A DNA stretch of 11,862 bases from a virus. The DNA is taken from the IMG/VR virus record IMGVR_UViG_3300041809_003079; one strand, 5' to 3'. This document shows, one piece after another, positions 3,194 through 9,924 of this stretch (within the stretch, counting starts at the first letter, position 1; each line of letters begins with the position of its first letter). Both the position numbers and the translations under genes were made by a program. The notes below the pieces were generated by a model. That model did no database searches, was not told the DNA's origin, and was given only the letters and a program-made list of their open reading frames with translations.

Positions 3194-3544
3194 TTATAAT
3201 TTCTCAAGCGAACTGTTGTAAACCCAACCGCATGTGACAGAACCTTTCCACGGAAAGACTATGAGTGACCAGTCTTTGTCATCCTTGCGCTGTCCGTTAG
3301 AGACTACGATTGCCAACACGCCAGTTAGTAGGCCTATCAATGCAATGTACTCATCAGGGTGTGAATCTCTGCCTATGATCTTTAATGGGTGTCTGTAGAC
3401 GACTGTACCTGACCTGATGACGTACATCGCTCCTGGAATGACTTGCGTCCGATGAAAGCTAGTCACTTTATGTTCAACTTTCGTAGGCTTCCGTCGAGCG
3501 CCCAGCCCAACAATCCTGAGCCACACCACAGTACGTACGTCCAT
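3194..3544 (-). CDS. Hypothetical small membrane protein (one predicted TM helix, YIALIGLLTGVLAIVV); start uncertain
   Basis: Minus-strand ORF whose stop lies 8 nt from the next gene's start. It has a single hydrophobic helix. It overlaps the upstream ORF by 82 nt, so the true start may be internal. Confidence 0.35.
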   Translation of the reverse strand: MDVRTVVWLRIVGLGARRKPTKVEHKVTSFHRTQVIPGAMYVIRSGTVVYRHPLKIIGRDSHPDEYIALIGLLTGVLAIVVSNGQRKDDKDWSLIVFPWKGSVTCGWVYNSSLEKL

Positions 3545-3720
3545 GCCTGAGAATTCGTTGCGATGATGATTCCGATGGCATTGGCGTCGGCCTTGGCGAG
3601 GCTTCTGAAGTCAGCGTCATTGTTTTGAGGCATCGGAGATGCGTAAATTGCAATGGGCCTGCCTCCTCGAGGCATGACCATGTCGCCCGGCATGCCTCGG
3701 ACGTCGGTCGGCTTGGTCAT
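3463..3720 (-). CDS. Small PGD-motif protein (about 85 aa from an internal Met, MTKPTDVRGMPGDMVMPRGG...), hydrophobic C-terminal half
   Basis: The track ORF is 3463..3765. The internal ATG at 3720 forms an ATGA overlap with the stop of the 3717..3935 ORF, the usual coupling arrangement. It contains the PGDMVMPRGGRPIAIY motif shared with six other small ORFs. Confidence 0.4.
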   Translation of the reverse strand: MTKPTDVRGMPGDMVMPRGGRPIAIYASPMPQNNDADFRSLAKADANAIGIIIATNSQAWTYVLWCGSGLLGWALDGSLRKLNIK

Positions 3721-3935
3721 GGTGTATACACCAGCACCCCTTCCTGCCCATGGCAGCCTCGACACCGTACCCTGCCATCGCTGAACCAGTATACCTTGTA
3801 TGCCAGCTGTGGGTTATCGTCGAGGGTCACCATGAGCCCGAGGCACAGACACAGCACGTCATTTATGTCCATGTGAAACCTGAAGAGGTCACCCGGCTTC
3901 AGGCATGGGAGGAGCTGGATCGGTAGGTGACTCAT
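3717..3935 (-). CDS. Small PGD-motif protein, 72 aa (KPGDLFRFHMDINDVLCL)
   Basis: Complete ORF on the operon strand with a family motif; it overlaps the upstream gene by 47 nt, so start choice is uncertain. Confidence 0.35.
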   Translation of the reverse strand: MSHLPIQLLPCLKPGDLFRFHMDINDVLCLCLGLMVTLDDNPQLAYKVYWFSDGRVRCRGCHGQEGVLVYTP

Positions 3936-4158
3936 CGTTCTTCTTTACCGGCATGACCGGAGCAAACTTCAGGCCGAGGTCGATCGCTACTAACAATGCC
4001 TGGTCCTGGACGTTGTCCAGGTGTCTAAGGGCACGTACGTAAGGGAACACGCTCTTAGGGTCGTGGTAGTCGTAATTGAACTGCTCGATCGTAGACTGCA
4101 GCTCGTCGACAGCCTGCAGGATGTCGTTCAACCGTAGCCGAACTGTCTCAATGTCCAT
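3889..4158 (-). CDS. Hypothetical protein, 89 aa
   Basis: Complete ORF, 4 nt from the upstream gene's stop (4163); co-directional packing. Confidence 0.45.
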   Translation of the reverse strand: MDIETVRLRLNDILQAVDELQSTIEQFNYDYHDPKSVFPYVRALRHLDNVQDQALLVAIDLGLKFAPVMPVKKNDESPTDPAPPMPEAG

Positions 4159-4162
4159 TGCG

Positions 4163-4468
4163 CTACCTCGACGCCCTGGTGATTTCTGTCGGCGGCCACA
4201 ACGTCCTTGACTCGAGCTGGATCGCAGTAGAGATGAACAGCTGCCTCAGGTCATAAAACTCCTCGCGCGTCACGTTAATGACGTTCGATTCCTTTGCCAT
4301 CTTGATCGACACCATTGGACCGTCGCCTCCTCGTACCTCGACGCTGTGTCCTCCAAGCGCAAACTTTAGCTTCCAATCGTGTTCGATTGTAAGCGATCCT
4401 CTCTGCGGAGACCCGACGCTTTCTTTGTTCATGCGTCTATCGTAACCACAACCGGCCCTAACGTTCAT
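4163..4468 (-). CDS. Hypothetical protein, 101 aa
   Basis: Its start overlaps the stop of the 4465..4908 gene by 4 nt (ATGA-type coupling). Confidence 0.5.
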   Translation of the reverse strand: MNVRAGCGYDRRMNKESVGSPQRGSLTIEHDWKLKFALGGHSVEVRGGDGPMVSIKMAKESNVINVTREEFYDLRQLFISTAIQLESRTLWPPTEITRASR

Positions 4469-4908
4469 TCATCAGTTAATTTCGGCAGCCTAGGCAGCTT
4501 TACCTGTGCCAGCCGAGGCCTTAACGCAAACGACGAGTGTTCGCCAAGTCGTGAGCGCGCTTTCATCGACATCGCAGCCCATGCGTCGGCAGCGGTCCTC
4601 CTAATCACGGGCTTCATGATGAAAAATGTCTTCCACGTCTGAGGCGGGAGACTCGCCTTCAACACCATAGGGTCAGTTCCCTTGGTGAGGACAAGCTGGT
4701 CCTTGACGATGCACACCTGGCATCGTCCAACAGACGTCTCCACGTATGTGTTGTTGGCTCCTCGAGGTATTGCGGGCAGCGCCTCATTCCGGATGATGTC
4801 CTTTAGCTCATTGAGGCGCTCAGTGAGGTCCTCAATTTGTGAGACGATTTGGACTGCTTCGGCCACAGCGTCCTGCGCCGGCGTTGTCTTGTGTTGGGAG
4901 GCCTTCAT
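4465..4908 (-). CDS. Hypothetical protein, 147 aa
   Basis: Complete ORF on the operon strand; a 49-nt gap lies upstream. Confidence 0.5.
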   Translation of the reverse strand: MKASQHKTTPAQDAVAEAVQIVSQIEDLTERLNELKDIIRNEALPAIPRGANNTYVETSVGRCQVCIVKDQLVLTKGTDPMVLKASLPPQTWKTFFIMKPVIRRTAADAWAAMSMKARSRLGEHSSFALRPRLAQVKLPRLPKLTDE

Positions 4909-4957
4909 GTCACTACAGTACCACTTACGTCAGCATCGATACACTCTTGCATCGAGA

Positions 4958-5206
4958 CTACAGCAGCACTTCGTCGGTCAGCTTGGTGCCAGAAATCAAA
5001 AAGACGTAGTAGTCTCGTTGTGTTGGATACTGCATGCCGATGCGTCTGGAGACGACCATACACAGCGATCCTAAATGAATTGTCACGTTGCCTATTTCGA
5101 CCGGAATCGTTGGCTGTTCGTCGTCTACGAGCGCAAAGATGTCGCCGGGCAGGAGCAGGTTCCAGTATATTCTGTGCTGGTACAGCGGTATCTCATGGTA
5201 TGCCAC
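4958..5206 (-). CDS. Small PGD-motif protein, 82 aa (LLPGDIFALVDDEQPTIPVEI), GTG start
   Basis: GTG start 1 nt after the stop of the upstream gene; AGGA 8 nt upstream; carries the family motif. Confidence 0.45.
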   Translation of the reverse strand: MAYHEIPLYQHRIYWNLLLPGDIFALVDDEQPTIPVEIGNVTIHLGSLCMVVSRRIGMQYPTQRDYYVFLISGTKLTDEVLL

Positions 5207-5207
5207 G

Positions 5208-8761: not shown

Positions 8762-8766
8762 AAATC

Positions 8767-8991
8767 GTGGACAATGATAACTGGCGAGAGAAGGCAAACC
8801 AATTGGCATGCATTGACGACAGAAGCCAAGAGGAGTATGAAGTTGCTCGGAAGGTCATCCTTGTTCGAGGTGAGTTGAATGAAGCACTGCAGGAACTCAA
8901 GAACGCAGAAGAGTCAGTGAAGGGCGTGTTAACGACGCTCGAGCAGCTGTTGTTGAGGCAGAGTGAGCTAGCAGCACGACACCTGCGATGA
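8767..8991 (+). CDS. Small coiled-coil protein, 74 aa (paralogue of the 7594..7827 product); GTG start
   Basis: SD GAAGGAA, which includes the upstream TAG, then GTG. Coiled-coil composition; N-terminal MDNDNWREKA motif. Confidence 0.55.
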   Translation: MDNDNWREKANQLACIDDRSQEEYEVARKVILVRGELNEALQELKNAEESVKGVLTTLEQLLLRQSELAARHLR

Positions 8992-8998
8992 CACCACC

Positions 8999-9100
8999 CA
9001 TGCTGAAACCTGGCGACATGATAAAACTACCTGACGGGATGATGTTGATGCCGCTTGACTTTTCAACCAACGGCGTCTTTTCGTTCTCTTCTGCATGAGA
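8999..9100 (+). CDS. Possible 33-aa PGD-motif mini-ORF (MLKPGDMIKLPDGMMLMPLDF...)
   Basis: Shares the PGD-phi-x-phi motif with six larger ORFs, but no SD is visible and it is very short. Confidence 0.2.
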
Positions 9101-9236
9101 CTTAGCGTTTGTGATAGCAGTGACGTCAGAAGAGCTGACAGTCTACCATTCTAGGTTTGAACAGGTCCTATGTATCAAGGCACAATGAATGTTATAAATG
9201 TTACACTGTCGACCAAGACACCAATTAAATTGTGCT

Positions 9237-9248
9237 TTTGTTAACAAA
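9237..9248. promoter_or_regulatory. Perfect 12-bp palindrome TTTGTTAACAAA in the 330-bp non-coding region upstream of the 9320 gene; candidate operator. Possible promoter CTGACA(9263-9268)-N19-TGTAAT(9288-9293).
   Basis: Read directly from the sequence. It lies about 70 bp upstream of ATG-9320, whose SD is AAAGGA at 9305-9310. Confidence 0.3.
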
Positions 9249-9319
9249 CGGGTGACAAAGATCTGACAGTTTGACGGTCATTGGGTATGTAATAGTGTCA
9301 CCCGAAAGGATCGTTAAAT

Positions 9320-9610
9320 ATGCCCACAGAAACAGATGTCACGAACGCAGACAACGTTGTCAACCAAGCCTACACGTCTTGGACAACTGCACATGGCAAC
9401 ACAGTCACTGCTCAGGCTGCAGCAACAGTTGCAGCAAACACGGAATCGCCCTTCTTGGCAACTTTCATTGCTGATGCACAGGCTGCAGTGACGCAGACGG
9501 TGTCATGGCTCGCAACGTGCCTACGTCAGGCTGGACAAGACCCGAGCGCTATCCTCGGCCCGTCGATCGCTGCAGTCCTCACGCTGCCTGTCAGCGGCTC
9601 TTCCTCGTAA
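9320..9610 (+). CDS. Ala/Thr-rich hypothetical protein, 96 aa
   Basis: SD AAAGGA followed by 9 nt and ATG. It has its own upstream non-coding region and a low-complexity A/T/Q composition. Confidence 0.55.
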   Translation: MPTETDVTNADNVVNQAYTSWTTAHGNTVTAQAAATVAANTESPFLATFIADAQAAVTQTVSWLATCLRQAGQDPSAILGPSIAAVLTLPVSGSSS

Positions 9611-9666
9611 TCACCCAAAATCACATGCATTGAACTCTTCCCTCTATTGGGATACACTGGCATTCA

Positions 9667-9924
9667 GTGTTGCCAGGCGACCTCTGCGTTGTAGTAAATT
9701 CTTCGACGTTACCATTCGTTGGTTTTCGATGGAAACTCAACGGTAAGACGCAGCAACTCGTTACAAAAGAACTCGTACTCATCATCAACACTGAACCTGT
9801 CCCTGACTTCATACCAAGAGGGAATGGAGGGCTTTTTGATCAACCTGTCATGGCATTGTTTGCTGATGGGCAGCTCGGGTGGACGCGCCGCTGTTTTCTC
9901 AGATTTGTGGAGGACGATGCATGA
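9667..9924 (+). CDS. Small PGD-motif protein, 85 aa (MLPGDLCVVVNSSTLPFVGF), GTG start
   Basis: Carries the family motif. Its TGA forms an ATGA overlap with the start of the next gene (9921-9924). Confidence 0.4.
   Translation: MLPGDLCVVVNSSTLPFVGFRWKLNGKTQQLVTKELVLIINTEPVPDFIPRGNGGLFDQPVMALFADGQLGWTRRCFLRFVEDDA

Follow-up and report, generated by a model that had tools for sequence, protein, structure and literature searches.

Large phages carry many tiny genes without known relatives. The virus record IMGVR_UViG_3300041809_003079 raises the question of what such genes may be, since small open reading frames (ORFs) on both of its strands share a short proline-glycine-aspartate (PGD) motif. 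Seven of them had been taken for a paralogous family in a preliminary description, made from the letters alone. The window analyzed here comprises 11,862 bp and is the entire JGI metagenome contig; its left end is occupied by a gene resembling that of the major vault protein (MVP). Based on sequence comparison, we conclude that these ORFs form part of a genuine protein family that appears to be undescribed. Its stand-alone members are 70-120 amino acids (aa) long, and within the sampled loci it is restricted to one clade of very large MVP-encoding phages.

Is the shared motif more than an accident? All seven PGD[LMI] motifs that had been described on both strands are present in plausible gene frames, at 7901, 8142, 9009 and 9673 on the plus strand and at 5149, 3896 and 3690 on the minus strand, and all fall within the first 35 residues. 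In the 29 small proteins of the window (2901 aa) only 0.11-0.12 occurrences would be expected. None of 20,000 shuffles contained more than 3, and the Poisson probability of ~6e-11 is a post hoc value, because the motif was defined from the same data. Since proline is encoded by CCT, CCA, CCG and CCC and glycine by GGT, GGC and GGA, the motif belongs to the protein and is not a DNA repeat. The opposing explanation, that it arose by chance or as a signal at the DNA level and that the small ORFs form no family, draws on the mostly non-significant comparisons within the window. BLASTP connects only the copies at 3194 and 3463 significantly (E 6e-4, 83 aa), leave-one-out profiles built from the window find members mainly through the motif and lose their signal once it is masked, and hhalign between window-only sub-alignments does not separate members from non-members. 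The case is thus open on the window alone; by sequence, homology is established only once relatives on other phage contigs are added.

Such relatives were reached through the MVP-like gene, which lies at 1-2075 (-) and runs off the left contig end, most of the protein being encoded. Its product matches MVP_shoulder in Pfam (5e-27), and Vault_3 and Band_7 also exceed their cut-offs. Viral MVP genes were noted previously (preprint 10.1101/2023.11.10.566534). We found more than 5900 homologues, the best with 74% identity, on contigs of up to 436 kb, as well as homologues in 161 IMG/VR viral loci on contigs of up to 501 kb. Phage-type genes (T4_Y16D, Gp23, Endonuclease_7, Cpn60) flank the closest of them, and together with the MVP homologues they identify the formerly proposed mobile element as a large phage. 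A motif scan of the MVP flanks revealed dozens of ORFs of 68-120 aa with an N-proximal PG[DE][LIV], a central 'LVIA' and a C-terminal G[WYF]. From 39 motif-selected seeds, iterated on the related loci L006, L007 and L008, an external profile of 67 sequences was obtained that contains no ORF of the window. Five of the seven ORFs and an eighth copy match this profile, which stems from other phages only, and the proposed paralogy is hence confirmed for them.

How far does the family reach? Our specificity sample consisted of 80 IMG/VR MVP loci, 10 with an MVP at least 66% identical and 70 with an MVP at most 54% identical to that of the window. Family matches occur in 8 of the 10 closer loci, across a guanine-plus-cytosine (GC) content of 35-63%, while the 70 distant ones (~1.4 Mb), which serve as negative control, gave 0 matches at E<=1e-3. 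In the huge phages LR756500/501/503 (24-32% GC), whose MVP gene is 43% identical by tblastn, no family copies were found. When 1.84 billion representatives were scanned exhaustively with HMMER, a single true homologue from outside emerged, P0013, which is orthologous to the copy at 3463 and has PGE where that copy has PGD; four other matches were rejected as repeat-protein false positives (YadA, MBG and others). A word-indexed search with an 8-member alignment recovered nothing beyond proteins of the contig itself, and one with a 49-member alignment just 6 proteins; no GenBank phage was matched by tblastn with the family consensus. The family alignment is too variable for a pattern-based locus search, and the matches to patterns of the 3463 subfamily were limited to 3 short metagenome contigs and did not include any IMG/VR contig. 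By megablast, the window had no match among GenBank phages or PLSDB plasmids either. Nor were related loci found through the 211-aa and 226-aa neighbours, searched for in viral as well as genome contigs, or through the MVP protein in genome contigs.

Which ORFs of the window belong to the family? To answer this, the external profile was run against 239 stop-to-stop six-frame segments of the window. By profile match and reading frame we count eight copies, distributed over both arms of the divergent gene arrangement described below: four clearly intact, two disrupted and two doubtful. The intact copies at 3463, 8130, 9667 and 3194 match the profile over their full length, with E-values from 2.8e-10 to 2.2e-6 and ~72-78 of the 92 profile positions. 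Among them m3463 (3463-3720, -; 85 aa) represents the best-conserved 'core' subtype (E 2.8e-10; hhalign 97%). Its most likely start is ATG 3720, which shares an ATGA with the stop codon of gene 3717 upstream, and its orthologues start with MAQPSDVRG or MGKVNDVRA. On the plus strand, p8130 (8130-8372; 80 aa; E 1.2e-7; hhalign 96%) follows a GAGGA Shine-Dalgarno sequence, and p9667 (9667-9924; 85 aa; E 5.8e-7 over positions 11-82; hhalign 95%) is coupled by its stop (ATGA) to the next gene, ATG 9921. The eighth copy, m3194 (3194-3466, -; ~90 aa), had been missed in the preliminary description, in which, furthermore, the ORF starting at 8988 was given as 8999. It carries the motif PGAM (E 2.2e-6 over positions 9-83; hhalign 75%) and probably starts at GTG 3466, overlapping the m3463 stop (GTGA); its profile alignment reaches upstream of JGI's Met start. 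With a BLASTP E of 5.6e-4 over 83 aa to m3463, m3194 is by sequence a local tandem duplicate of this copy, and no counterpart was found at its position in the syntenic locus L010. Gene callers conflict on 3717, 3463 and 3194, their products being 51, 77 or 116 aa, or none.

Two further copies are disrupted members, the second of which matches only weakly as it stands. As read in frame, p7835 (7835-8086, +; 83 aa) is family-like over its N-terminal two-thirds only (E 8e-5, positions 5-58 only; hhalign 88%). The remnant of its C-terminus, ...VPVLVYCHSLSRLGWVGHWRMQHVEDIG*, lies in the -1 frame at 8038-8133 (+), matches profile positions 67-85 and ends with a TGA (8131-8133) sharing bases with the p8130 start codon ATG. 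When both frames are joined, the score climbs from 16.5 to 25.6 bits and the coverage extends to positions 5-85. The frameshifted sequence is also present, with 100% identity, in the separately assembled ENA contig L004. A programmed frameshift is less likely: there is no slippery site of the type X XXY YYZ at 8029-8041, and a mutational origin is therefore favoured. The second disrupted copy, p8988 (8988-9188, +; E 0.012; hhalign 65%), consists of a 36-aa ORF that starts ATGA-coupled to an upstream coiled-coil gene and ends at an in-frame TGA (9096-9098), followed in the same frame by DLAFVIAVTSEELTVYHSRFEQVLCIKAQ*. The stretch past the TGA, DLAFVIAVTSEE..., corresponds to the central strand of the family. 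Read-through doubles its score, from 8.2 to 16.4 bits, lowers the E-value from 0.03 to 8e-5 (positions 8-59) and lifts the hhalign probability from 65% to 93%. Recoding of TGA as Trp was rejected because TGA ends many neighbouring genes.

For the two doubtful candidates membership rests on little more than the motif and is unproven. The 82-aa m4958 (4958-5206, -; E 0.065 over positions 14-68) possesses the motif and the central strand and lacks the C-terminal G[WYF]; its hhalign value (3.7%, 42 columns) lies above every non-member, and its score is reached by 1 of 100 shuffles. The profile match of the 72-aa m3717 (3717-3935, -; E 0.12, positions 11-21) is the motif only (hhalign 20%, 12 columns), again with a score reached by 1 of 100 shuffles. 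Its PGD sits within a 47-nt overlap with the upstream gene 3889-4158, and the JGI call is a 51-aa product without PGD. Judged by its sequence, m3717 may be a deletion variant without the beta2/loop region. Moreover, the eight copies otherwise head the ranking of the 239 segments, yet its weak end is not clean: a segment in a non-coding frame, 6403-6558 (+), ranks above 4958 and 3717 with E 0.05 and below 8988. A motif-less ninth member at 9921-10121 (p9921) was rejected (E 26; hhalign 0.14%). Consequently, of the seven proposed members five match the profile, two of these (7835 and 8988) in disrupted form, whereas 3717 and 4958 are not demonstrable beyond the motif. With the external profile, hhalign gives 75-97% for the five best copies as against at most 1% for all window proteins other than the eight copies, which answers for these copies what the window alone leaves open.

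In related phages the family is expanded. The locus L008 comprises 44 matches in 22.7 kb, and its first 30 called genes are all members in consecutive order; L007 contains 21 copies, L006 2 and the loci L014-L022 1-11 each. The copies are indeed diverged, as had been noted for the window, and extremely so: paralogues within L008 share a median of 18% and a maximum of 39% identity. That they diversify rapidly was likewise suggested, and this suggestion finds no backing between the two near-identical strains L008 and L009 (99.3% identity). Across their 43 family genes, 47 changes are synonymous and 19 nonsynonymous, and the resulting ratio of nonsynonymous to synonymous polymorphism (pN/pS) of 0.12, the same as in the neighbouring small genes, indicates purifying selection. 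The family copies are therefore maintained protein-coding genes. Full-length matches to a profile from other genomes and purifying selection in the relatives add to the motif count and the varying wobble positions, and refute a chance motif for five of the seven ORFs. It may apply to 3717 and 4958 individually; as an account of the whole set it is extremely improbable.

Expansion and disruption together point to a particular mode of evolution. The family would grow by tandem duplication and evolve by birth and death; we suggest the latter because frameshift repair and read-through restore the profile match of the two disrupted copies and because the local duplicate m3194 is absent from L010. 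A pair of coiled-coil genes accompanies the two disrupted copies. The 77-aa p7594 (7594-7827, +) lies directly upstream of p7835 and its paralogue p8767 (8767-8991, +; 74 aa) directly upstream of p8988; both are linked by BLASTP (E 1.3e-4; with composition adjustment 27% identity and E 4e-4). The family copies behind them, p7835 and p8988 read through, share 28% identity over 50 aa (E 0.05). This arrangement points to duplication of a two-gene unit, followed by decay of the second gene in either copy.

What might the proteins look like? The family signature starts with PG[DEQ]-[LIV]-[VIA], which would form a turn and strand 1, and continues with L[WYF] (strand 2), a loop of variable length and L-V-I-[AS] (central strand), followed in the C-terminal part by an aromatic residue, V.VL, [LVF]-G-[WYF] and then L. 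The PG pair is found in 66-67 of the 67 profile sequences, partly by construction, with D, Q or E next and then [LIV][VIA]. The stretch linking strand 2 to the central strand differs widely in length and is of low confidence in the model. AlphaFold2 yielded all-beta models for 8130 (8-row alignment; predicted local distance difference test (pLDDT) 79.9, predicted template modelling score (pTM) 0.69) and for 3463 (11-row alignment; pLDDT 83.9, pTM 0.74). Both show an identical order of seven strands, with PGD immediately preceding strand 1. Two members are thus predicted to be seven-stranded beta-barrels of the SH3b type. Structurally, they come closest to bacterial SH3b domains from cell-wall hydrolases, and KOW neighbours score lower; a BFVD search found SH3b domains of endolysins along with small, unnamed SH3 proteins from phages, with E ~2e-3 only. 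At the level of sequence profiles, the Pfam SH3 clan gave nothing at E<=1 for the window members save KN17_SH3 with E 0.12 for 8130, and 1 of 49 family members matches SH3_2 with E 0.009, below the cut-off. The assignment to the SH3 fold is consequently supported, while membership of a curated SH3 family is not. Of the KOW/SH3-barrel likeness proposed before, the SH3-like barrel stands on the models, whereas KOW does not, since there is no Pfam match and SH3b is closer. The supposed resemblance to DUF2158/YodC finds no Pfam match either: neither DUF2158 nor KOW is hit by the nine window ORFs (E<=1) or by the 49 members (DUF2158: E<=0.01).

The SH3b neighbours raise the question whether the proteins are peptidoglycan-binding modules like those of endolysins and NlpC/P60 hydrolases. 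Despite this structural kinship we consider such a role very unlikely. The proteins are stand-alone, 70-120 aa long and without a catalytic domain in Pfam; by inspection they carry no N-terminal signal or membrane segment, and no recognisable lysis genes adjoin them. Nor do they match SH3_3, SH3_4, SH3_5 or GW in Pfam, the last being the SH3-like module of ~80 aa with a conserved Gly-Trp known from InlB and Ami, and dozens of copies would be senseless for wall binding. Small barrels might also bind nucleic acids, as KOW, Tudor, Sm-like or Hpy99I N-terminal domain-like proteins do, and the family could then comprise regulators of transcription or translation or a DNA coat. This is improbable, if less so than wall binding: isoelectric points range from 4.1 to 10.1 with 28 of 67 members acidic, and the missing KOW match and the higher scores of the SH3b neighbours argue in the same direction.

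The most serious rival, because of synteny, is that the proteins are partners, adaptors or cargo of a vault-like MVP shell, the barrel docking on MVP or on the adjoining Band_7 protein. In the window, as in L006-L010 and in 8 of the 10 closest IMG/VR loci, the MVP gene has family copies on its flanks; the arrays are co-directional with it and nearly gap-free. In seven loci of 42-64% GC, orthologues of the 3463 subtype hold a position 1.0-3.6 kb upstream of the MVP gene. However, all these loci were retrieved through the MVP gene, so that co-location is biased; a range of 0 to 44 copies per locus is odd for a stoichiometric partner; and since the 70 loci with a more distant MVP have no family copies, MVP does not need these proteins. 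On balance we regard the partner hypothesis as rather unlikely.

Instead, we favour an SH3-type family that expanded by birth and death and supplies a battery of cytoplasmic binding modules directed against host or phage macromolecules, and we hold this reading, taken as a whole, to be reasonably probable. Each copy would be one such module, its barrel maintained by a conserved core of hydrophobic and aromatic residues. Its target would be set by the hypervariable loop between strands 2 and 3, which corresponds to the RT-loop position of SH3 domains, and by the varying surface charge (pI 4-10). Jointly, the copies might bind host or phage macromolecules in infection, for host takeover or anti-defence. 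The anti-defence or inhibitor function proposed earlier is a conjecture. A diversified SH3 binder repertoire could also be divided, with one conserved core copy tied to the MVP module and tens of variable copies, of which each would neutralise or recruit a host factor of its own, e.g., of anti-phage defence, or which would load different cargos into a vault compartment built by the phage; this we judge doubtful, though somewhat less so than a pure MVP partnership.

Several points weigh against the favoured reading. The binder or host-takeover role is inferred from the general use of SH3-like barrels and from gene context, and the structural models come from shallow alignments of 8 and 11 sequences. 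Pfam, PHROG and PDB-sequence searches of the 49 members gave no link to a characterised family. The clustering near MVP carries the retrieval bias named above, every related locus having been fetched via the MVP gene. Because the seeds of the profile were picked by motif, motif-only matches (3717 and the unrepaired 8988) are circular, a problem that the full-length matches escape. Short-term purifying selection, furthermore, does not show diversifying selection, and searches for motifs of sigma-70-type and T4 late promoters (TATAAATA) were uninformative on expression timing.

Besides the family, the window comprises a densely packed set of other genes. The GC content is 61% in the region of the MVP-like gene and ~52% in the remainder of the contig. 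Beyond this gene, two blocks of small, closely packed genes with often overlapping starts and stops diverge from a 122-bp gap at 7472-7593 and form a divergent operon pair: a minus arm from 7471 to 2505 and onward toward the MVP gene, and a plus arm from 7594 to 11738. Other than the MVP gene and a 38-aa ORF, no window gene has a match in Pfam or PHROGs. This ORF (8409-8525, +; MRRQRGFTLFELMVTIAIIGIIIALAATGAHAVMSNIR) matches the prepilin-type N-terminal methylation motif PF07963 with 43 bits (cut-off 21.2) and is GTGA-coupled to the next gene, 8522-8761; by its sequence it looks like a pilin cut down to signal and transmembrane helix, within a phage operon. On the minus arm, a 211-aa protein (6836-7471) with an AT-hook-like C-terminal KRGRGRPPGAKNRPK shares 55% identity with an orthologue in L007 (3648-4328) and is among just three non-MVP window genes with a recognisable orthologue in related phages; an exact look-up gave no record. 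A 149-aa protein (5208-5657, -) with a zinc-ribbon-like CxxC...CxxC segment shows weak matches to DZR and HypA (E ~0.03-0.04); its gene is coupled to and directly upstream of the candidate 4958. Two ENA contigs of the same phage, assembled separately, cover 3028-5095 (L003) and 7514-8285 (L004) of the window and are identical to it or differ at 4 positions (3642, 4466, 4533, 4643).

The MVP gene of the relatives shows features of its own. Between L008 and L009 it (10001-12697) contains 32 synonymous and 0 nonsynonymous differences, and its synonymous divergence of 0.049 is ~2.5x that of its neighbours (0.018-0.021). Recombination is one possible cause, a mutational hotspot combined with very strong protein constraint another. 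Terminator-like elements, each a hairpin plus T-run, lie at 12698-12782 and 14637-14723 of L008, one directly after the MVP gene and the other directly after its neighbour, a Band_7 gene encoding 617 aa; upstream, hardly any intergenic space is left between the genes of the 30-gene family array.

If the divided repertoire of core and variable copies were real, it would parallel, in bacteria, the multigene host-range families known from giant viruses of eukaryotes. Here, a block of tiny, relative-less phage genes resolves into one fold family that lacks a Pfam or PHROGs entry, is restricted within the sample to one phage clade and has been expanded on a scale seldom recorded for phages. With dozens of naturally varied copies of one scaffold, intact as well as disrupted, it provides a testable set for binding by small phage proteins, and it draws attention to a conserved neighbour of the phage vault-protein gene, itself unexplained. 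The case also illustrates that motif-level paralogy read from raw sequence can be real even if pairwise statistics inside one contig fail.

How does the family compare to known systems? Full-text literature searches revealed no description of it. Its closest structural counterparts, the SH3b domains of hydrolases and endolysins (phiSM101 Psm 4krt, BT_1314 3pvq, BCE_2878 3h41, lysostaphin), have no detectable sequence relationship to it. They are appended to secreted enzymes, whereas the window proteins are stand-alone and apparently cytoplasmic, possess an additional conserved N-terminal PG[DEQ]-[LIV]-V and occur, as a family, in dozens of paralogues per genome. Small single-domain SH3-like barrels in mobile elements are known from the integron cassette protein VCH_CASS4 (3g1j), from 53-122-aa proteins of phages such as Noxifer and phiPMW in BFVD and from DUF4314. 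However, the likeness to these proteins is one of fold only (Foldseek E >= 2e-3), and none of them is reported as a large tandem expansion. The DUF4314-type gene beside the MVP gene of L008 (PF14192) reaches just 0.5% in hhalign, and no DUF4314 match is present among the 49 members. With respect to expansion, the nearest parallel is Bacillus phage G, a jumbo phage with ~35 copies of a zinc ribbon in a lineage-specific expansion (PMC7824862). In both cases one tiny domain is present in tens of copies per large phage genome. In contrast to the zinc ribbons of phage G, the family described here would be an SH3b-like barrel, is found clade-wide across 35-64% GC and includes one syntenic subtype. 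Taken together, its fold is of a known kind, while the sequence family and the scale of its expansion appear to be new.

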